Below, one piece after another: positions 16,608-60,490 of a DNA stretch of 64,000 nt; position 1 is the first letter of the stretch; every line of letters starts with the position of its first letter. Source of the DNA: Dehalococcoidia bacterium (lineage in GTDB: Bacteria; Chloroflexota; Dehalococcoidia; Lucifugimonadales; Australimonadaceae); the NCBI GenBank assembly GCA_965220655.1, contig CBDCQO010000012.1:102931-166930 (forward strand). Direction: 5' to 3'. A model generated the notes under the pieces. The model did not search any database. It was not told the origin of the DNA and worked only from the letters and a program-made list of their open reading frames with translations. The translations under genes and the position numbers were made by a program.

Positions 16608-17738
16608 CTACTCGCCTCGTAGGCGGGGGATGAACTCCGCCATCTGTGATTCCGCGCCGGACTTCGCGAGCGTTTCGAGGAAGATGTCGTGGATGATGGG
16701 GTCTTCATCCTCGTACTCGATCTGCCCGCCGCCCTGCTTCACGTCCACGTCGGTCTCGCCCTCCATCGCCACGCCGAGTGAGAAGTAGTACTTCTGGCTT
16801 CCCCAGCGGAAGGCGAGGTAGCGCGCGGGAGTCGCGCCGCCGTTGAAGTGCTGGTGGAACCAGCCGTTCGGAGGCACGACGAGCGAGCCGGGCTTCCAGT
16901 CGACGCGTTCCATGCCGTCGTGGGGGCTGCCGTGGGACGGCCAGAGCAGCGAGTAGCCCTCGCCCTTGATGATGATGACATGTGCGCCCGGACCGTGCCG
17001 GTGCGCCTTCTTGTAGGTGCCGACGGGGAACTGCGAGACGTGGGCGGTCTGAGTCTGGTCGGCGAGCTCGAACTTGATGTGCGCTCCCCCTGCTCCCCGC
17101 TCCTTCCAGGAGAACGTCGTGAATGTCTCGATGTCGGGCACGAAGTTGGTCTCCCAGGCGTTGGTGCGCCCGGTCGTGGCCGTCCACATCCTGCCCTCGC
17201 CCTGGAACTGCTTCGGGTTGCCGATGCGGTCTTCGAAGACGTAGGGGTTGTTGAAGACGAAGCCCTCGTTGTGGAAGAGGTTCATGGTGATGGGGGCAGT
17301 GGTGACCGCGACGAAGCGGGCAGGCTCCGAGCCGCTGCCGTTCATGTGCTGGTGCCAGACGTTGATGGGGATGGAGAAGACGCTGCCGCGCTTCCACTCG
17401 AAGCTGACTCGGCTGTTGGGGTCGTCGCCGACGAGGGTCGCGCCGCGCCCTTCGAGGACGTAGATGTTCTTCTCGAAGATGTGCTTCTCCGGGGCCATCC
17501 TGCCGCCCGGCGGTATTTCAGCGACGTAGGCGCCGTTGGTGTCGCCCGCGCCGTCGAGGTTGATGTACGTGCCGAGGCAGTTCAGGCGTGCCCACGGCTT
17601 GACCTCGACGGTGCGCAGGTCGTCCACCGCGAAGCCGGTGATGACGGGTATGCCCTCCTTCTCCTGGAAGGCGCGATAGGCGTTGTACTTGACGATGCGT
17701 TCCTGGTCCGGGCGTATCTCTGGCGTGGATGTTGTCAT
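16608..17738 (-). CDS. Bicupin protein (two cupin barrels), function unknown
   Basis: The ATG at 17738 is preceded by GGAGGAGCC. Cupin motifs are YVLEGRG/VWHQHMN and HRHGPGAHVIIIKGEGY/GWFHQHFN. The longer six-frame ORF runs through the tRNA and is not used. Confidence 0.75.
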   Translation of the reverse strand: MTTSTPEIRPDQERIVKYNAYRAFQEKEGIPVITGFAVDDLRTVEVKPWARLNCLGTYINLDGAGDTNGAYVAEIPPGGRMAPEKHIFEKNIYVLEGRGATLVGDDPNSRVSFEWKRGSVFSIPINVWHQHMNGSGSEPARFVAVTTAPITMNLFHNEGFVFNNPYVFEDRIGNPKQFQGEGRMWTATTGRTNAWETNFVPDIETFTTFSWKERGAGGAHIKFELADQTQTAHVSQFPVGTYKKAHRHGPGAHVIIIKGEGYSLLWPSHGSPHDGMERVDWKPGSLVVPPNGWFHQHFNGGATPARYLAFRWGSQKYYFSLGVAMEGETDVDVKQGGGQIEYEDEDPIIHDIFLETLAKSGAESQMAEFIPRLRGE

Positions 17739-17797
17739 GGGGGCTCCTCCTGTGGGGACGAGGCTGGCTGGAGTATGGGAAGTGATGGGAGAATGGT

Positions 17798-17872
17798 TGG
17801 AGCGGGCGATGGGATTCGAACCCACGGCCCTCTGCTTGGGAAGCAGATGCTCTACCCCTGAGCTACGCCCGC
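17798..17872 (-). tRNA. tRNA-Gly (anticodon CCC), CCA encoded
   Basis: Minus-strand read: GCGGGCGTAGCTCAGGGGTAGAGCATCTGCTTCCCAAGCAGAGGGCCGTGGGTTCGAATCCCATCGCCCGCTCCA. It folds as a cloverleaf with anticodon loop TTCCCAA. Confidence 0.92.
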
Positions 17873-17914
17873 GCTGTGTGAGATTGTAGCGCGGTTCCGG
17901 CGAGTTGGCACGCG

Positions 17915-18412
17915 CTACCGCGCGAGGCGCGACCAGGCGACCGCCATCGCGACGCCGATCGCTGCGAGGCGGAACAGTCCGCCGATAGAGAGGTCGCCAA
18001 GCGCTCCGACCAGGAAGGGAAGCGTAGCCAGCGCCACACTGGCCAGCCCCATCCACTGGTAGGTGCGGCCTCTGCGGCGGTTGACCGCGACGCTGATGGC
18101 CTCGCCCAGGACGTACCCGAGCCCCAGCATGATGAAGAAGGTGAAGAACCCCCCGAAGGGGATGAGCCGGAACAGGACCTGCAAGGCGATGAACCCGGCG
18201 ACTCCCGCTCCGAGAGCTGACAGGACGCCTCTGGTCACGTAGCTCACAGAGACGGCGTGGGTCGGCAGCCCCACCGGCGCGCCGCACTCCTTGCAGCGTA
18301 TGCCGACCGGGTGCTGGCGCATGCACTCGGTGCAGATGGGCTTCTCGCAGTTGCCGCACCGCAAGCCCGTTTCACGGCTGGGGTGCCAGTGGCACGTGGG
18401 CAGTTGCGTCAT
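17915..18412 (-). CDS. B-box-type zinc-finger membrane protein
   Basis: N-terminus CHWHPSRETGLRCGNCEKPICTECMRQHPVGIRCKECG, followed by about four hydrophobic helices. The ATG at 18412 overlaps the plsY stop (ATGA). Confidence 0.65.
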   Translation of the reverse strand: MTQLPTCHWHPSRETGLRCGNCEKPICTECMRQHPVGIRCKECGAPVGLPTHAVSVSYVTRGVLSALGAGVAGFIALQVLFRLIPFGGFFTFFIMLGLGYVLGEAISVAVNRRRGRTYQWMGLASVALATLPFLVGALGDLSIGGLFRLAAIGVAMAVAWSRLAR

Positions 18413-39576: not shown

Positions 39577-39664
39577 CATCTGCCGGTTTCGCGGATGACT
39601 GCACCGTGCTAACCTGATCTCAACAACCGGTCCGCCGGAAAAGGAAACGCACGCACGGGGACGA

Positions 39665-39697
39665 GCCCCGGCCTTGAGAAAGGGCCGGGGCTTTTTT
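39665..39697 (+). terminator. Rho-independent terminator (end of the proBA-mug-thpR transcription unit)
   Basis: GCCCCGGCC-ttgagaaag-GGCCGGGGC followed by TTTTTT. Confidence 0.75.
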
Positions 39698-39741
39698 CGT
39701 GTCCGGGCGCCGCATCGGCGGGCGCATGAGGAGGCGCAGAC

Positions 39742-40431
39742 ATGGTGTCGTACGAGGTGAGTGCAGGGGTGAGCGAACGCGAGCGTTGGGAGCGGGAGCG
39801 GCTGCTGGAATCGCTGGAGGCGTACCGGCGGGGATTGGCCGACGCGCCGGTGGTGCAGAGGTTCTCGGTCTGCCACGCCGTCGCGCCGAACGAGGAACGC
39901 CCGCTCACGGTCGTCGCGTCGGACGAGTCGGCCGACCGACTGGGCGACGTGGTGCGCGCCGACGGCTGGGATCTGGACGCGTACAAGCACAACCCCGTCT
40001 TCCTGTGGGCGCACGACTACACCCGCACGCCCATCGGGCGCAGTTCCTGGGTGGGCGTGGACGGCGCGAAGCTCGTTGCCACGGTGGAATTCGCGCCGAC
40101 GGCGTTCGCGCAGGAGGTGGAGTTGCTCTATCGGCAGCGGTTCCTGCGCGCCGTGAGCGTCGGCTTTCGGCCCAGGGAGTTTTCGTTCCGCAAGGGTCGC
40201 GACGGTTCGGTGGACGGCGTCGAGTACACGAGGCAGGAGCTGCTGGAGCTGAGCGCGGTGCCCGTGCCCGCGAACCCGCACGCGCTGGCGAAGGCGCTCG
40301 AAGGCGGACTCGACGCGCCGCGGCTGCGTCCGCTGTTCACGTTCGACCTTCCCGCGTCGTGCATCGCGCCGGAAGACGCCCAGCGTGTCTTGAGCGAGCT
40401 GCGCCGGCTGCGGAGCCTGGTGTCTGGATGA
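39742..40431 (+). CDS. HK97-family phage prohead serine protease
   Basis: ASDESADRLGDVV, GWDLDAYKHNPVFLWAHD, PIG, SVGF and ELSAVPVPANPHA follow the caudoviral prohead protease pattern. GAGGAGG SD upstream. Confidence 0.9.
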   Translation: MVSYEVSAGVSERERWERERLLESLEAYRRGLADAPVVQRFSVCHAVAPNEERPLTVVASDESADRLGDVVRADGWDLDAYKHNPVFLWAHDYTRTPIGRSSWVGVDGAKLVATVEFAPTAFAQEVELLYRQRFLRAVSVGFRPREFSFRKGRDGSVDGVEYTRQELLELSAVPVPANPHALAKALEGGLDAPRLRPLFTFDLPASCIAPEDAQRVLSELRRLRSLVSG

Positions 40432-40471
40432 ACAACAAACGGCCCATCGCGGCCGGGAAAGGAGGAGAGCG

Positions 40472-40720
40472 ATGCGTATAGCACAGGTGGTGCGCGCGGC
40501 GTTGCAGGCGGCGCGGCTGGTGGATGTCCTCTGCCGGGTTGCGCCGGATGCCGCCGAGGCGCTGGAGAGCGGAGCGCGGTTGATGCGTGAGTCGGCCCGC
40601 GCCGCGCCGGACGGACTGACCCGCACGGAGCGGGACACGCTGGCGTCGTCGGCGCGCAGGTTCGGCGAAGCGCTGGCTGGGGCCATAGAGGCGGCGCCGG
40701 TCATCGAACAGGAGAACTGA
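40472..40720 (+). CDS. Hypothetical Ala/Arg-rich helical protein (82 aa) between protease and capsid genes
   Basis: AAAGGAGGAG SD, high GC3, no family recognised. Confidence 0.55.
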   Translation: MRIAQVVRAALQAARLVDVLCRVAPDAAEALESGARLMRESARAAPDGLTRTERDTLASSARRFGEALAGAIEAAPVIEQEN

Positions 40721-40739
40721 TCCCACAGAAGGAGGAGAG

Positions 40740-42065
40740 ATGTCTGCGATAGACGAGATGCAGAAGGAGATAGTGGAGACGCAGGAGTTCGTGCGCGAGC
40801 GGCTTGGCCCGGTCACGAAGGAGCTGACGCTCATGCGCGAGGAGCAGGAGCGGCTCGCGGGCGAGGTGCGCCGCGTGCTGGAGCACGACCGCTCGGCTCG
40901 GCGCGACGCGCTGCTGGGCCGGGGCTCGAACGACCGCGTCCGCGTGCGCGGCGGGAAACTCGACGGCTTCGACCTCGTGGACCTCGCCGTGATGCGGAGC
41001 CTGCTCGCAGCCCAGCAGGCGCGCCCGCAGGACTACGACCCGCGAGCGCTCCGCGCCTGGCAGGAGAGCGTCGCCAGGGCGATGGACTCCACCACCGTGG
41101 GCGCGGGCGACGAGCTGGTGCCCCAGGAGGAGGCGCGCCAGTTGTGGGCGGACGTGAACGTGGAGACGGCGGTCGCGTCGCTCTTCGAGACGGTCACGAT
41201 GCCGTCCAACCCGTTCGACGTGCCTCTGCAACTGGGCGACGTCAACTGGTACCCGGGCACGGCGAACACGGCCACGACGGCGACGGACCTGAAGACCGCC
41301 AAGCAGACGCTGACGGCGTACGAACTCGTCGGCATGGTGCCGTGGGCCTACGAACTGGACGAGGACGCCGTCGTCGCGATGATGGCGGAGGTGCGCTCCA
41401 CGCTGCTCCGCAATGCGGCGCAGGTGCTGGACGACGTGCTCCTGAACGCGGACGCATCCGCCGGGAACAACATCAACCACGACGGCCAGAATCTCGCCGC
41501 CTCCGCGGCGGGCAAGGCGCACTACCTGCTGGGGTTCGATGGCTTGCTCCACCTGCCGCTGGTGGACAACTCGGCGATGGGGAACGACTTCAACGCGGAG
41601 CCGACCGTCGACATGTGCAACCAGCTCCGGCGGATGCTGGGCAAGTACGGCGTGCGCCCGTCCGAACTGGCGTTCATCACGGACGTGGGCACGTACATCG
41701 CCATGCAGGCGGTGGACAGCTTCCAGACGCTGGACAAGCTCGGCCCGCGCGCGACGCTGCTCACCGGCCAGTTGGGCGCGGTCGAGGGCGTCCCCGTCAT
41801 CGTGTCGGAGCAGCTCCGCCTCGCCGACTCGGACGGCAAGGTCACGTCGGACGGCAACGTCGCGGACACGGGTCGCCTGCTGCTGGTGAACCGTACGCAG
41901 TGGCGCAAGGGCTTCAAGCGCGAGCTGCTCATCGAGACGGAGCGCGACATCCAGAAGCGCCAGAACGTCATGGTCGTCAGCATGCGTGTGGCGTTCGCGG
42001 AACGCTCCGGCGACCGTGCCAACGCGACGCACACCGCGCTGCAGTACAACGTGAAGCACTCGTAG
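40740..42065 (+). CDS. HK97-family phage major capsid protein
   Basis: Coiled-coil delta-like N-terminus (MSAIDEMQKEIVETQEFVRERL...). The capsid body has blocks MDSTTVGAGDELVPQEEARQLW and TLTAYELVGMVPWAYELDEDAVV...LLNAD. AGGAGGAG SD upstream. Confidence 0.9.
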   Translation: MSAIDEMQKEIVETQEFVRERLGPVTKELTLMREEQERLAGEVRRVLEHDRSARRDALLGRGSNDRVRVRGGKLDGFDLVDLAVMRSLLAAQQARPQDYDPRALRAWQESVARAMDSTTVGAGDELVPQEEARQLWADVNVETAVASLFETVTMPSNPFDVPLQLGDVNWYPGTANTATTATDLKTAKQTLTAYELVGMVPWAYELDEDAVVAMMAEVRSTLLRNAAQVLDDVLLNADASAGNNINHDGQNLAASAAGKAHYLLGFDGLLHLPLVDNSAMGNDFNAEPTVDMCNQLRRMLGKYGVRPSELAFITDVGTYIAMQAVDSFQTLDKLGPRATLLTGQLGAVEGVPVIVSEQLRLADSDGKVTSDGNVADTGRLLLVNRTQWRKGFKRELLIETERDIQKRQNVMVVSMRVAFAERSGDRANATHTALQYNVKHS

Positions 42066-42092
42066 CCCACGTCGTTCCTGCGGTGAGGAAAG

Positions 42093-42117
42093 GGGGCGGG
42101 CGCATAGCGCCCGCCCC
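42093..42117. terminator. GC-rich hairpin between the convergent capsid and methyltransferase genes (bidirectional terminator candidate)
   Basis: GGGGCGGGCGC-ata-GCGCCCGCCCC, with weakly T-rich tails on both strands. Confidence 0.55.
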
Positions 42118-42125
42118 TGTTCGTT

Positions 42126-54058: not shown

Positions 54059-54705
54059 GCCCCCACTCCCATATCGCCGGAGGCGCAAGGGACCTCGTTC
54101 CAGAGTTCCAGGACGCGTCCGTCGGCATGGTTGCTGACGACGGAGAGACTGCCGCGATCGATCCTGAACCGCCAGAACCGGTCGTCCGCCAGCCCCAGCA
54201 GGCAGACGAGTAGCGCGCGTATCGACCCTCCATGCGCCACGATCAGCACGTTGTCGGTGGGCTGATGGCGCCCCACCGCGTGCTCGTAGAACCGCCGCAC
54301 CCGGCGCAGCAACTGTCGGGTGTCCTCGCCTCCGGGAGCCGCGAACGCATCGGCGTCCAGCGCCATCCGGCGGGCGTAGGACTCCGCATCCCGTGCCTCG
54401 GCTTCCTCCGCCGTCAGCCCTTCCCACTCCCCGTACGAGAACTCGCGGAGGTCGGGGTCAGCTTCGATAGGGATCCCGCTATCCTGCATGATTACCCGCG
54501 CGCTCTCCACGGTGCGCGACAGGTCGCTGGCATAGACCGCGGCGAATCTGCATCCGGCGAGCCTCTCCGCCAGTGCATGCATCTGTCGCCTGCCGTGGTC
54601 GTTCAGCCCCACGTCAGTGTGACCGTGGATGCGTCCTTCTCTGCTCCACTCCGTCTCACCGTGGCGTACCAGGTACCAGCGGCCCGCCCCATCGTTCTGT
54701 GTCAC
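54055..54705 (-). CDS. cobC: Alpha-ribazole phosphatase (histidine phosphatase family)
   Basis: LVRHGETEWS motif. The GTG at 54705 overlaps the cobS stop (GTGA). Confidence 0.8.
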   Translation of the reverse strand: MTQNDGAGRWYLVRHGETEWSREGRIHGHTDVGLNDHGRRQMHALAERLAGCRFAAVYASDLSRTVESARVIMQDSGIPIEADPDLREFSYGEWEGLTAEEAEARDAESYARRMALDADAFAAPGGEDTRQLLRRVRRFYEHAVGRHQPTDNVLIVAHGGSIRALLVCLLGLADDRFWRFRIDRGSLSVVSNHADGRVLELWNEVPCASGDMGVGA

Positions 54706-55472
54706 TGCATCCCCCACAGCAGCGCTTGGAACAACCCTGCAGCCAGGTGGAACAGTGCTATGCCTGTCAGGAGCACGACCACCTCTCCCACTTCGTTCAC
54801 CGCCCCGTAGGTGTCGCCGGTCATGCCTCCCAACAACCCGGTGACCCACCGCCCCATCGCCAAGGCTATGGCGATGACCGCACCCAGCAGCACCAGCCCC
54901 GCGAGCCCGCTCAGCAGCGCACCTGCGGTGGCTGCGGTGGCAAAGCCGAATGCCATCTGCCACCTGCGGCGTCCCTCCTGGAACGACGTGCCGAGTCCCT
55001 GCTCCCGGGCGTACGAGAAGGCGCCCATCGCCGCCAGCATCCCGAACCGCGACAGGCATGGGAACAGCATGAGCAGGGCGGTGCGTTCCTCGTCTGGAAT
55101 GCCCGCGATGAGGCTCCACTTCAGCAACAGCAGGCTCGCGCCGCCCAGCACCGCGAACGCGCCGACGTGTGGGTCGCGGAGTATCTCCAGCCGCTTGGCG
55201 CGGTCGTAGCCGCCGAACAGCCCGTCGCACACATCGAGGAACCCCTCAGTATGGATGGCCCGCGTCAGCACCAGCATCGCGACGACCAGCAGCGCGCTTA
55301 TCACCGGCGGTGGCAATGCTTGCCCCAGCACGAGGTCGATGCACGCAAGTATGCCGCCGAGCGCCAGCCCTACGAGCGGGAAGTACGCGCGGGCAGGCCC
55401 CATCCGTGCATCACCACCGGGTGCGACCGGCAGCACCGTGAGGAATCCGATGGCCTGCCGCAAGCCGTTCAA
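54702..55472 (-). CDS. cobS: Adenosylcobinamide-GDP ribazoletransferase (cobalamin synthase)
   Basis: MNGLRQAIGFLTVLPV start, polytopic, 256 aa. Confidence 0.9.
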   Translation of the reverse strand: MNGLRQAIGFLTVLPVAPGGDARMGPARAYFPLVGLALGGILACIDLVLGQALPPPVISALLVVAMLVLTRAIHTEGFLDVCDGLFGGYDRAKRLEILRDPHVGAFAVLGGASLLLLKWSLIAGIPDEERTALLMLFPCLSRFGMLAAMGAFSYAREQGLGTSFQEGRRRWQMAFGFATAATAGALLSGLAGLVLLGAVIAIALAMGRWVTGLLGGMTGDTYGAVNEVGEVVVLLTGIALFHLAAGLFQALLWGMQ

Positions 55473-57126: not shown

Positions 57127-57969
57127 CTACCGCGGCATTCCTGTCGCAACCTTCTCGGAAGACGACATGGTTGACTCTGCCGGGCCGATCAGGCTTATCG
57201 CAAGTGAGCCGGTTACGGGGTCGGAATAGACAGCGCACCGGACGCCGAAGGCGGACTGGATGGCCCCGGGCGTCAAGACCTCCTCAGGAGTGCCCTCGGC
57301 AAGCACTCGCCCCGCGCTCAGCAGTACGAGGCGGTCGCAGTAACGCGCCACCATGTGCAGATCGTGGATCGCAGCAATGGCCGTCAGACCTTCGCTGACG
57401 AGCTGCCGCACGAGGTCGAGCACTTTGAGCTGATGGAAGACGTCCAGGTTGGAGGTTGGCTCGTCTAGCAGGAGGATGCGCGGTTGCTGTGCGAGTGCAC
57501 GCGACACGAACACGCGCTGGCGTTCTCCTCCGGACATCGTATCGAGCGTCCTGTCGGCGAACCGCTCGGTGTCGGTCTGGCGCATCGCGTCGCGGGCGAC
57601 GCGGTTGTCCTCTCTTCCTTCGATCTGGAAACGCCCCAGGTGGGGATACCTGCCCATGAGCACGAGCTCGAACGATGTGAATCCGTGCGTGTACGGCGCG
57701 ATCTGGGAGACGAGTGCCATGCCGGCGGCGACGTCCCTGGAGGACATGGAGCGCAGGTCCGTTCCCTCCAACAGGACAGCGCCGTGTTGGTGCACGAGCA
57801 TGCCTGACAGCGCCCTCAACAAGGTGGACTTCCCTGCGCCGTTCGGGCCGATGAGGCCGACGAACTGTCCCTGCTCGGCGTGCAGACGCACGTTGTCCAG
57901 CAGCGTCTGCGCGCCGACGCTGTAGGAGAGGCCTTCCGCGCTGAGCGCTTGTGGCTTGTCACTGTTCAT
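57127..57969 (-). CDS. btuD: Corrinoid/iron-siderophore ABC transporter ATP-binding protein
   Basis: Walker A GPNGAGKST, signature SGGERQ, Walker B LLLDEP. ATGA overlap with btuF. Confidence 0.88.
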   Translation of the reverse strand: MNSDKPQALSAEGLSYSVGAQTLLDNVRLHAEQGQFVGLIGPNGAGKSTLLRALSGMLVHQHGAVLLEGTDLRSMSSRDVAAGMALVSQIAPYTHGFTSFELVLMGRYPHLGRFQIEGREDNRVARDAMRQTDTERFADRTLDTMSGGERQRVFVSRALAQQPRILLLDEPTSNLDVFHQLKVLDLVRQLVSEGLTAIAAIHDLHMVARYCDRLVLLSAGRVLAEGTPEEVLTPGAIQSAFGVRCAVYSDPVTGSLAISLIGPAESTMSSSEKVATGMPR

Positions 57970-59123
57970 CTGCTGTCCGGAAGGCTGAACGGAGCGCTCT
58001 CCGACGCAGGGAAGTCGTTCGGCCACAGGAGCCGGGCGAGCTCTTCAGCCCCAAGGATGTTCCAGTAGGAGAGAGTGGTCGCGTGCTTACTCTCCACCAC
58101 GTGCACAGCACCGTTCTTCACTGCCGAGACTTCGGCGAGTGCTGCGTTGGCAAGCAGGCTTTCGCGGAAGTCCTCCCCGCCGAACTCTACCGGCTGAGGG
58201 ATGATGATGACCTCCGGGTTCATGGCGATGACCCCTTCCAGGCTGGTCAGTTGGTTGCTCTCGACCCCGGCCTCTTCGGCTGCGTTGACGCCTCCGGCAG
58301 CCGTGATGACGCCGCCCTCCGTCGAGTTGCCGCCCGCTACCCAGAGCTGATCCGAGTACTGCGTAAGCGCGAGCACCCGGGGACGAGGCTGTGCCACTGT
58401 GGTGATGGCGACGAGAGAATCGTACCGTTCGCGTACCTCGGCTGCGAACTCGATGGCGCGTTCCTCTTCACCGAGGACATAGCCGATAAGCAGGATGTTG
58501 TCGATGCGCGCCTCAGGGTCGTGCTGCAGTTCCGTCTGCACCACCGGGATGCCGACTCTCGACAAGGCCTCGATGCCCTCGGCAGGGAAGAACGGGCTGG
58601 TGATGATAACGTCCGGCGACTGGGCGATGATCGTCTCAGGGTCACGTGTGACCTCAGGCTTGTCCTGCACCAGCGAGGCGACGTTGGAGAACGTCTCGCT
58701 CTTTGTGGGGTTTCCGACTGCAACGAGCCGGTCGCCGGGGGCAAGGGCGAGGACCACCTCGTCGTGCCCGACGGAGGCGGTGATGATGCGCTCCGGCTTG
58801 GTGGGGATGCTCACGACACCGTTCAGCCCCTCGACCTCGCGTGGCCAACCGAGGTTCGTGGGGTCGACGATGCCCGGTACGTTGTCGGGCAGCCTGACGA
58901 CGGGCTCGGGAATCGGCGTGGGCTCAGGGGTTGGAGTTGGTGTTGGGTCTGGCGCCACGGTAGGTGTGGCTGTTGGTGTTGCCGTCGGTGCCGGGGTTGG
59001 AGTCGGGGTTGGTTGCGAACAGGCTGCCAGCGCTATGACGGCAATGGATACGAACAAGGTGACGATGAGGGCGGCGAAGTGTCGGACCAGCAAGGTGACT
59101 CCTTTCGTGAGGTCGCGTCTCAT
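57966..59123 (-). CDS. btuF: Corrinoid/iron-siderophore ABC transporter substrate-binding lipoprotein with a PT-rich tether
   Basis: Lipobox VIALAAC, a ~40-aa Pro/Thr linker, then a class III (BtuF/FecB-like) binding-protein body. Confidence 0.85.
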   Translation of the reverse strand: MRRDLTKGVTLLVRHFAALIVTLFVSIAVIALAACSQPTPTPTPAPTATPTATPTVAPDPTPTPTPEPTPIPEPVVRLPDNVPGIVDPTNLGWPREVEGLNGVVSIPTKPERIITASVGHDEVVLALAPGDRLVAVGNPTKSETFSNVASLVQDKPEVTRDPETIIAQSPDVIITSPFFPAEGIEALSRVGIPVVQTELQHDPEARIDNILLIGYVLGEEERAIEFAAEVRERYDSLVAITTVAQPRPRVLALTQYSDQLWVAGGNSTEGGVITAAGGVNAAEEAGVESNQLTSLEGVIAMNPEVIIIPQPVEFGGEDFRESLLANAALAEVSAVKNGAVHVVESKHATTLSYWNILGAEELARLLWPNDFPASESAPFSLPDSR

Positions 59124-60196
59124 AGCGAGTAGACCTGACGTTTGTTCCTGATGAGCAGGAGGATGAAGAACGGCGCACCGACGAACGCGGTGAGGATGCC
59201 GACGCGGAACTCGGCTGGCTGGATGATGGTCCTGGCTACTGTGTCGGCCACGGTGACGAAGACCGCGCCACCCAGTGCGCTCATGGGGATGAGCACGCGA
59301 TGGTCCGGGCCGATCAGGAGCCGGAGGATGTGCGGGGTGACGAGGCCGACGAAGGCGATGGTGCCGCTGACGGCGACGGCAGCGCCGGTCACCAGTGCCG
59401 CCGCAGCAAGGAGGAGGATGCGTGCCATGCCGACGCGAACGCCCATGGAACGGGCCTCATCGTCACCCAGCATCAGAAGGTTGAGGTCGCGCGCCATCAG
59501 AAGGATGACCGCAGCGCCGCCGATGATCAGCGGCGCCGAGATGCGCACGTGTTCCCAGGAGCGCGAGTCCAGCCCCCCTGCGAGCCAGAAGAGGATCTCG
59601 CGGAGTGCTTCGTTGTCGGGCAGGAGGATGATGATTGCTGAGACGATGGCGCCGAGGAACGCGTTGACCGCGACTCCGGCAAGCAGAAGCGTTGCCATGG
59701 AGAAGCGTCCGCCAACGGCGGCTATCCCGTACACGAGGAACGAGGCCGCCATGGCGCCGATGAACGCGAAGGCTGGCAGTGCAAGGAAGAAGAGCCCTGC
59801 CATGCCAGTAGCGATGGCAACCACTGCACCCAGCGCGCCTCCTGCCGACACCCCGATGATGCCGGGGTCGGCCATGGGATTGCGGAACAACCCCTGCATC
59901 GTTGCTCCGGCCACTCCCAGGGCGACGCCGACCACGGCGCCGACCAGTATGCGTGGCAATCTGATCTGCTCGATAACGAGCCGCTCGGTGTTGCCGAACC
60001 CCTCAGCGTCGAATCCCAGGGATGACAGCACGATGGATGCGACGTGACTGGCGGGTATGCTGACAGGCCCGAGGCTGAGCGAGACGGCGGCGCTCGCCAG
60101 GATCAGCAGGAGCAGTGCGGATGCGCCGATGGCCAACCGGCTGGTAACGGCCACCCGGCGGTAGCCGCGTAACGTTGTGAGTCCAACGGCCCTCAC
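59120..60196 (-). CDS. btuC: Corrinoid/iron-siderophore ABC transporter permease (FecCD family)
   Basis: 358 aa with a FecCD-type ~10-TM pattern. GTG start 9 nt after GGAGG. Confidence 0.88.
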   Translation of the reverse strand: MRAVGLTTLRGYRRVAVTSRLAIGASALLLLILASAAVSLSLGPVSIPASHVASIVLSSLGFDAEGFGNTERLVIEQIRLPRILVGAVVGVALGVAGATMQGLFRNPMADPGIIGVSAGGALGAVVAIATGMAGLFFLALPAFAFIGAMAASFLVYGIAAVGGRFSMATLLLAGVAVNAFLGAIVSAIIILLPDNEALREILFWLAGGLDSRSWEHVRISAPLIIGGAAVILLMARDLNLLMLGDDEARSMGVRVGMARILLLAAAALVTGAAVAVSGTIAFVGLVTPHILRLLIGPDHRVLIPMSALGGAVFVTVADTVARTIIQPAEFRVGILTAFVGAPFFILLLIRNKRQVYSL

Positions 60197-60199
60197 ACC

Positions 60200-60490
60200 A
60201 AAAAACCTCCGGCGGCTCTCCGCTGGAGGTCAGGTTTCACGCTGCCGGAATTACGAGTCCGGCGACCGAGGGACCCTCTCTGAGGCGGAGAGTGGTCACC
60301 TCTCGTTCAGGCAGGTCTCCTGGCTTCGCGGGGGGATTCATCCGTCGGGCCCTTCCCATCGACATCTTCGACAGTGGGCTCCGGCTCCGAGACCCCGCTT
60401 ACAGTGGCGCTACCGCGGCGGACTCACACCGCCTTCCCTATTCTCCCGGGACGGGCACCTGAACGAGCAGTGATCGTATGTGTGTAACGA
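60200..60490 (-). promoter_or_regulatory. Cobalamin (B12) riboswitch with terminator/SD-sequestering expression platform
   Basis: The minus-strand read AATAGGGAAGGCGGTGTGAGTCCGCCGCGGTAGCGCCACTGTAAGCGGGG contains the conserved core and the B12 box GCCACTG. The 3' hairpin CCTCCAGCGG-agag-CCGCCGGAGG + TTTTTT (60200-60229) includes the btuC SD. Confidence 0.9.

Follow-up and report, generated by a model that had tools for sequence, protein, structure and literature searches.

A capsid cassette among housekeeping genes

The stretch of DNA described here, referred to as the window, is 64 kb (65.8% GC) of contig CBDCQO010000012.1 (positions 102,931 to 166,930) from the genome of a Dehalococcoidia bacterium. 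At positions 39742-42065 of the window, hereafter the locus, lies a cassette of three genes for a prohead serine protease, a protein of 82 amino acids (aa), and an HK97-type major capsid protein (Table 1). An earlier note on the window regarded this cassette as an orphan, either the last fragment of a decayed prophage or a retained capsid module that might serve as a nanocompartment, a satellite head, a head resembling that of a gene transfer agent (GTA), or a decoy. Among these options, the GTA-like head fits best with the comparison of relatives presented below.

The three open reading frames (ORFs) are intact and run in one direction, each with a ribosome-binding site of the AGGAGG type, as the earlier note had described. 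These sites are GAGGAGG at 39728-39734 for the protease, AGGAGG at 40460-40465 for the 82-aa ORF, and AGGAGG at 40730-40735 for the capsid gene. Pfam assignments confirm housekeeping genes on both sides, with proB, proA, an amidohydrolase, UDG/mug, and LigT/thpR upstream, and an N6_N4 DNA methyltransferase, a HAD hydrolase, and a comF-type phosphoribosyltransferase downstream. At third codon positions, the GC content (GC3) ranges over 0.84-0.95 for the cassette genes and 0.81-0.92 for the flanking genes, in agreement with the host-like codon usage proposed before. The GC content of the window is flat with no anomaly, and neither repeats nor GC3 give a sign of foreign origin. No other phage genes were found in the 64 kb, and terminase, portal, adaptor, and tail-like proteins of relatives gave no match to the window in tblastn searches.

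Signs of mobility were also sought. The available Pfam annotations of genes at the inspected loci include no recombinase or integrase family; for the window itself this check was partial, with Pfam annotations for some genes and region 72-31602 (the DnaE C-terminus, Ogt, RecA, RNase Y, Era, NadE, and others) covered by translations read by eye only. Direct repeats of the att type flanking the cassette amount to short imperfect chance repeats. The hallmarks of prophages and of satellites such as phage-inducible chromosomal islands (PICIs) and capsid-forming PICIs (cf-PICIs), namely a contiguous element with an integrase, att sites, and regulatory or replication modules, were not found at the inspected loci. 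In a search of defence systems with PADLOC, the protease, the 82-aa ORF, the capsid, and the terminase had no match, and the idea of a defence decoy was rejected.

Protease and capsid protein

Profile searches with the three proteins matched the first and third to the families previously assigned to them, while the 82-aa protein matched no family. The protease scores 35.8 bits against Pfam PF04586 (Peptidase_S78; cut-off 21) and matches PHROG 617 and PHROG 80 with E-values of 1e-26 and 2e-19, respectively; its score against the TIGR01543 equivalog (36.9) lies below the cut-off of 59. Across 18 sequences with identities as low as 39%, H91 (in NPVxLWAH), S139 (in VSVGF), and the motifs DRxGD and PVPAN do not vary, and the LRRLR tail at the C-terminus is likewise conserved. 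By analogy, H91 and S139 would be the catalytic pair.

The capsid protein exceeds the cut-offs of both Pfam PF05065 (Phage_capsid; 32.8 bits, cut-off 24.2) and NCBIfam TIGR01554 (major_cap_HK97; 55.5 bits, cut-off 27.5). In the major head protein of phage T5, a long N-terminal delta domain precedes the HK97-fold body and is cut off by a prohead protease whose gene lies just upstream. The closest relatives of the window's capsid in the PDB are capsid chains of this phage (8ho3 and 5tjt, E 2e-14), so that T5 pb8/pb11 (PDB 5TJT, 6OKB, 6OMA, 6OMC, 8HO3) is the closest solved structure by sequence; entries 5TJT, 6OKB, 6OMA, and 6OMC belong to phage T5 (PMC11937500). Homology to T5 pb8 begins at about residue 108, and a low-confidence model predicts a helical conformation for residues 1-118. 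Given this helical N-terminus and the onset of T5 homology, residues 1 to ~112 fit a helical, delta-like (scaffolding) domain, in line with the earlier description of the protein as HK97-type with a delta-like N-terminus. The mature body is predicted to start near the invariant motif AMDSTT.G.GDELVP. Differences from T5 are that only the P- and A-domain region (residues 268-367) aligns well, that the delta domain would be ~112 aa in place of 159 aa, and that the cassette does not lie in a phage genome.

Distribution and vertical inheritance

A search for homologues of the capsid protein returned more than 1227 relatives grading from 100% to ~60% identity, many of them on megabase contigs, and the length of the protein is constant (441-447 aa) down to 58% identity. 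Among GTDB contigs with one genome per species, 370 genomes encode a capsid relative. The locus comparisons that follow cover the best 80 of these 370 genomes (L001-L080), all titled Dehalococcoidia, Chloroflexota, or SAR202, with several derived from sponges. In every one of the 77 loci with upstream sequence, the capsid gene is immediately preceded by the protease gene, and the capsid gene gave a full-length, uninterrupted match in 81 of 81. The sole irregular copy among the 81 is in L015 (10001-11427, SAR202 bin16), which has a ~100-bp N-terminal duplication or frameshift; its source is an older short-read metagenome-assembled genome, and the irregularity is possibly an assembly error.

Capsid identity divides the loci into three clades: clade A (L001-L015 and L027; 90-98% identity), with 16 species plus the window; clade B (L016-L031 except L027; 71-82%); and clade C (L032-L080; 58-62%). 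In addition, at least 104 contigs of IMG/VR carry relatives, with a best identity of only ~64-67%. Most of these contigs (loci L085-L164 were inspected) are fragments of 4-15 kb with the order protease, capsid, c73, c105, c7, adaptor, and such "viral genomes" may be fragments of Dehalococcoidia chromosomes rather than viruses.

Throughout clade A, the gene order of the window is complete from proBA through comF and beyond. Across 16 clade-A genomes, the Nei-Gojobori ratio of nonsynonymous to synonymous substitution rates (dN/dS) is 0.116 in the protease gene, 0.149 in the 82-aa ORF, and 0.133 in the capsid gene, with 0.03-0.25 in the flanking genes; dS lies between 0.30 and 0.43 in the cassette and between 0.25 and 0.59 in the flanks. 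Co-divergence was assessed by pairwise distances within clade A. The distances of the capsid follow those of proB (correlation 0.81) and proA (0.76), and the control correlations between housekeeping genes are 0.84-0.89 (0.89 for proA with proB). The mean capsid distance of 0.074 makes this gene more conserved than mug, thpR, HAD, and comF. In clade A, the cassette is vertically inherited, co-diverges with the chromosome, and is under purifying selection. The retention favoured by the earlier note is thereby borne out, and the case named there as pointing to decay, in which relatives carry a full prophage and the cassette degrades, was not seen. Instead, the fuller modules of relatives are conserved, interleaved with cellular genes, and without a detected integrase.

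Conservation extends to the 160-bp intergenic leader between thpR and the protease gene, which is conserved block by block across clade A. Two conserved blocks, GGTTTCGC and then TAACCTGAT, are separated by ~17 nt and followed by a 13-bp hairpin (39663-39693; z -5.3 relative to shuffled sequence), a T-run, and the GAGGAGG site of the protease. A second hairpin, of 12 bp and terminator-like in both directions, lies between the convergent capsid and methyltransferase genes (Table 1). Both hairpins fold far better than shuffled sequence, in keeping with the earlier picture of a unit bracketed by such structures. The upstream hairpin and its T-run are likewise confirmed; because this hairpin lies inside the clade-conserved intergenic block, it may serve the cassette as a leader or attenuator and not only terminate thpR. 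A possible pair of -35/-10-like elements is located 5' of this hairpin; no sigma-70 consensus promoter was detected in the leader, and the leader had no match in Rfam. With these putative promoter and attenuator roles, the arrangement may be reminiscent of antitermination in phage late operons.

Fuller modules in sister clades

The ORFs of the 80 loci were clustered, and cluster representatives were scanned against profiles. A large terminase (PHROG 2, E 7e-33) is encoded within 10 kb upstream of the cassette in 15 loci, and 14 of these also have an HK97-type portal gene upstream (Pfam E 2e-67). A co-directional gene for a head-tail adaptor of ~283 aa (PHROG 442, E 2e-16) follows downstream in 48 loci. 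In the more distant clades, co-directional genes downstream of the capsid encode major-tail-like (PHROG 10528, E 3e-10) and tail-terminator-like (PHROG 17840, E 7e-10) proteins, each of ~140 aa. No family was found for the module proteins c18, c86, c50, c73, c76, c105, and c90, several of which are conserved. The sister clades thus have a terminase and portal next to the protease-capsid pair, at odds with the view of the cassette as an orphan.

In L017, a locus of clade B, the genes run terminase, portal, DUF7700 (on the other strand), protease, capsid, alpha/beta hydrolase, c7, adaptor, one unassigned ORF, and F420 ligase; cellular genes are interleaved with the module, and no tail genes follow. 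The sub-clades of clade C keep their own stable housekeeping neighbours, including ABC transporters, gamma-glutamyltranspeptidase, and FAD oxidoreductase. Two further genes recur beside these modules. A gene for a 387-aa protein with a Fic/DOC domain follows a 680-aa module protein in eight clade-C loci (e.g., L035 16997-18160). In one clade-B and one clade-C genome (L169 7101-8432, minus strand; L170 7603-8469, plus strand), the prohead protease gene is closely preceded by one for a Trypsin_2 serine protease.

The 82-aa protein has a much narrower distribution. It had no match in Pfam, PHROG, NCBIfam, or PADLOC, and its sequence matches in the PDB were discarded as meaningless. With a hidden Markov model it was found only in clade A and in L019, L021, L024, and L026, and the loci that bear it are exactly those reduced to protease, small ORF, and capsid; only two related clusters were found among 1.84 billion representative proteins. 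The ORF is a real gene under selection. The AF2 model predicts a bundle of three helices (pLDDT 72), which had no match with E < 0.3 in BFVD. Phages place scaffolding or decoration genes between the protease and capsid genes, where the 82-aa ORF sits, and a role as a scaffold, decoration, or assembly factor may be guessed.

Solitary portal and terminase genes in clade A

With the terminase of L019 as query, homologues were found on four clade-A chromosomes (Table 1), each solitary among housekeeping genes. One of these contexts, with methylmalonyl-CoA mutase and an AMP-binding protein on one side and a class-1b tRNA synthetase and inositol phosphatase on the other, is shared in synteny by three genomes. 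All four terminases retain the Walker motifs and the nuclease aspartates, and dN/dS is ~0.25. Two terminase homologues occur together on at least one chromosome (2,911,394 bp). A 129-aa Fic gene is located directly upstream of a solitary type-2 terminase (L083 9433-9822).

A solitary portal gene (P0368) was found on OZ220673.1, the chromosome of L006, between Mfd and NTP-transferase/EF-G. Its context is syntenic with that in a second clade-A-type chromosome, and its protein cluster has a further member in the genome of L019. The portal is 82% identical to the clade-B portal that adjoins the cassette, and its dN/dS of 0.084 (dS 0.52) is indistinguishable from that of the adjacent EF-G and Mfd genes. 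On OZ220673.1, the cassette (~2.21 Mb) is far from a terminase gene (~0.70 Mb) and from the portal gene (~0.22 Mb), and housekeeping genes surround each of the three. The description of an orphan without portal or terminase therefore holds for the window, but clade-A genomes carry both genes at other chromosomal sites.

No neck or tail genes lie near any of the three clade-A loci, those of the terminase and portal included. A suggestive pair of c7 and adaptor genes was seen beside lysS-greA on a metagenome contig of 67.5% GC (L174), although no tie of this contig to clade A was found.

Table 1. Features of the cassette region of the window and solitary terminase genes of clade A. Coordinates are window positions; for the terminases, the chromosome or contig is given.
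Feature	Location	Strand	Basis
Conserved thpR-protease intergenic leader	39582-39741	+	Alignment of 12 clade-A loci; hairpin scan and fold
Prohead serine protease, family S78, 229 aa	39742-40431	+	ORF list; Pfam PF04586
82-aa lineage-specific protein ("SMALL")	40472-40720	+	ORF list; no family
HK97-type major capsid protein, T5 pb8 type, 441 aa	40740-42065	+	PF05065, TIGR01554, PDB 8ho3/5tjt
12-bp GC hairpin between convergent capsid and methyltransferase genes	42092-42118	both strands fold	z -4.7 and -4.8
N6/N4 DNA methyltransferase, orphan, 280 aa	42126-42968	-	Pfam N6_N4_Mtase, E 3e-46; PHROG 67, E 1e-61
Terminase P0290	OZ220673.1 (genome of L006)		PHROG 2, E 1e-39
Terminase P0310	OZ242348.1 (L027)		
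Terminase P0335	CBDEVR010000002.1 (L008)		
Terminase P0352	OY764542.1 (L005)		PHROG 2, E 5e-38

A proposed dispersed GTA-like head system

Under the definition of GTAs as viriforms, their proteins derive from caudoviricetes and are endogenised, often at multiple loci, with mostly vertical inheritance; in addition, the gene set cannot be packaged into a single particle, and mostly random host DNA is packaged and delivered to recipients (PMC9662315). In the genomes compared here, profile matches identify caudoviricete-derived proteins, the portal, terminase, and cassette of OZ220673.1 lie far apart, and inheritance within clade A is mostly vertical, with co-diversification. The identities of the genes, their dispersal, the conserved synteny, the purifying selection, and the co-divergence with the chromosome are all observed. 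In its caudovirus origin, endogenisation at several loci, and vertical co-diversification, the system matches the genomic part of the definition. With moderate confidence, the cassette is considered to be one locus, that for building the procapsid, of a dispersed, vertically inherited, phage-derived head system that is fixed in a large lineage of Dehalococcoidia (SAR202-type) and is probably a GTA-like system not described before.

In the proposed mechanism, the capsid protein would assemble on a portal dodecamer by means of its delta domain, the co-packaged protease would cut off this domain, and the terminase would fill the head with DNA. The resulting particle would act as a GTA-like particle rather than as a virus, since genes up to 2 Mb apart could not be carried as a genome of its own; with loci separated by 0.5-2 Mb, no single headful would be expected to hold the full gene set. 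Particle formation and DNA packaging in clade A, as well as neck, tail, and release functions, are inferred.

A broader proposal, put forward tentatively and at somewhat less than even chances, is that a class-wide, hitherto unrecognised family of GTA-like viriforms exists in SAR202/Dehalococcoidia. Its head genes would be scattered singly, and the loci would form a series from compact through interleaved to dispersed. In the lineage with the small ORF, the system may be evolving toward a capsid that has a portal and a new assembly partner but no tail.

Several observations weigh against a GTA-like head system. There are two types of clade-A terminase (L081, L082, and L166 compared with L083 and L084), with 55% mutual identity and three different housekeeping contexts. 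Identity between the type 1 terminase and the closest terminase linked to a cassette is only 56%, compared with 82% for the portal and 79% for the capsid. Given this divergence and the differing contexts, the partnership of these terminases with a capsid of the window's type is uncertain. The portal was seen in two clade-A-type chromosomes, and the genome of the window is not among them. No small terminase, adaptor, head-closure, tail, holin, or endolysin gene of clade A was found among the matches listed. The 82-aa ORF is present exactly where the locus has shrunk to three genes, which could signal a change of function. Furthermore, the AF2 model of the capsid from the alignment of 18 sequences is unusable (pLDDT 39).

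Alternative explanations

A head-only system that depends on helpers or interferes with phages is a possible but unlikely explanation. The chromosome would supply heads that are completed with the tails of an infecting phage, in the manner of cf-PICIs, or that block phage assembly as a defence. L017 encodes only terminase, portal, protease, capsid, a ~150-aa protein, and an adaptor before housekeeping genes resume, with no tail genes, and this set resembles the cf-PICI repertoire. Some relatives share with cf-PICIs a repertoire limited to head and neck: terminase, portal, protease, capsid, and adaptor. However, neither an integrase nor a regulatory or replication module was detected at the inspected loci, and the genes are non-contiguous, fixed in position, and co-diverge with the chromosome. 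As they are dispersed and syntenic with housekeeping genes, an element of this kind could not excise or mobilise as a unit. In addition, some clades carry tail-terminator-like and major-tail-like genes, and PADLOC returned no matches.

An encapsulin-like nanocompartment is quite unlikely. Here, the trio of protease, small protein, and capsid would assemble into closed shells devoid of DNA. The small protein would be their cargo, scaffold, or cement, and the portal and terminase would have another purpose. This explanation accommodates the reduction of the locus to three genes exactly where the small ORF occurs, the strong purifying selection on all three, the absence of neck and tail genes near the three clade-A loci, and the unusually divergent, paralogous terminases of clade A. 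Like the encapsulins of families 1-4 (PMC8346489), the capsid is a predicted HK97-fold shell protein that is kept by selection in a cellular genome. However, the capsid has no match to an encapsulin family, no neighbouring cargo gene is conserved across clades, and a delta domain and dedicated protease are retained, unlike in any described encapsulin family. Selection constrains the portal of these genomes as strongly as EF-G, this portal closely resembles the one beside the sister-clade cassette, and the catalytic motifs of the terminase are intact. With portal and terminase genes elsewhere in clade-A genomes, the self-contained nanocompartment and the decoy suggested by the earlier note are both improbable.

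The last fragment of a decaying prophage that persists neutrally is a very improbable reading. The phage genes do stand alone among housekeeping genes, and some relatives have fuller clusters, but all 81 capsid genes are intact, dN/dS is 0.12-0.15 at dS 0.3-0.4, and most neighbouring housekeeping genes are less conserved than the capsid gene. Purifying selection, constant length, and invariant motifs and putative catalytic residues together exclude this reading. Weakest of all is an active temperate phage or satellite that integrates at one highly specific site in many species, for which the shared gene order of IMG/VR "viral" contigs might be cited, but those contigs are distant and possibly chromosomal, integrase families were not seen in the available Pfam annotations, att repeats were not found, and the portal, terminase, and capsid genes lie 0.5-2 Mb apart, with distances that co-vary with those of flanking genes. 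Neutral decay and an active prophage or satellite are thus effectively excluded.

Comparison with known systems

The dispersed GTA-like head system proposed here resembles GTAs of the RcGTA type (Rhodogtaviriformidae; PMC9662315) in its caudovirus-derived terminase, portal, S78-type protease, HK97-type capsid, and adaptor, and in being endogenised at several loci, without a detected integrase, under vertical inheritance and purifying selection. It differs in its host phylum, Chloroflexota, in the lineage-specific 82-aa gene of the cassette, and in the dispersal of its genes down to single genes, whereas RcGTA consists of a head-tail cluster of ~15 kb with accessory loci. In the profile search of the PDB, only T5 capsid chains were returned at E <= 0.01, so that any RcGTA capsid chain in the copy searched went unmatched.

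The nearest conceptual precedent is found in the putatively domesticated head-tail elements of Thaumarchaeota, in which an S78 protease gene precedes an HK97 capsid gene, att sites and replication genes are lacking, and a GTA-like nature was considered possible (PMC6563490). Those elements are contiguous proviral regions in few genomes and are mutually highly divergent, whereas the genes described here are dispersed and orthologous across hundreds of species. The literature search brought up neither a GTA nor a conserved capsid module described from Dehalococcoidia, SAR202, or Chloroflexota. The concept is GTA-like, and the system differs by its phylum, the dispersal of single genes, and the lineage-specific partner protein. 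To our knowledge, only a handful of independent GTA domestications have been described, none of them in Chloroflexota.

Other features of the window

The gene convergent with the capsid gene encodes an orphan DNA methyltransferase, for which the 280-aa model is correct and the 349-aa ORF is not. PADLOC classes it as a type II methyltransferase with the partner nuclease absent. It adjoins the cassette throughout clade A, and in L019 a methyltransferase of 78% identity lies ~7 kb downstream of the cassette. Larger methyltransferases near the protease gene in L024, L054, L070, and L075 are only 26-30% identical to that of the window; a 601-aa ORF in L057 belongs to the same cluster as these larger proteins. 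The association is uncertain, and the gene may be a co-retained phage gene or its position a coincidence.

Farther downstream, Pfam identifies genes for a Rieske oxygenase, a luciferase-like monooxygenase, MFS transporters, CobS, and FecCD. A cobalamin riboswitch (60293-60477, minus strand; Rfam RF00174, 102.9 bits) precedes the FecCD permease (59120-60196) and an ABC ATPase (57127-58026), with CobS close by (54702-55472). In the other part of the window, a mechanically called ORF of 583 aa (16608-18359, minus strand) spans tRNA-Gly (17798-17872), and only its cupin-like C-terminal part could be a real gene.

Implications for SAR202 and related Dehalococcoidia

If the GTA-like reading is true, hundreds of species of an ecologically dominant, uncultured lineage would carry such a system, and horizontal gene flow among them would become testable. 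This lineage, among the most abundant uncultured groups of deep-ocean bacteria and sponge symbionts, would possess a built-in organelle for DNA exchange. The graded series of loci, from compact modules through interleaved ones to single genes spread over megabases, would naturally preserve the stages by which a prophage is taken apart and incorporated into a chromosome. The system also bears on the cellular co-option of HK97 capsids, the question raised by encapsulins. Furthermore, if many of the IMG/VR contigs (at least 104) are chromosomal, virus counts and virus-host links for SAR202 would be inflated.

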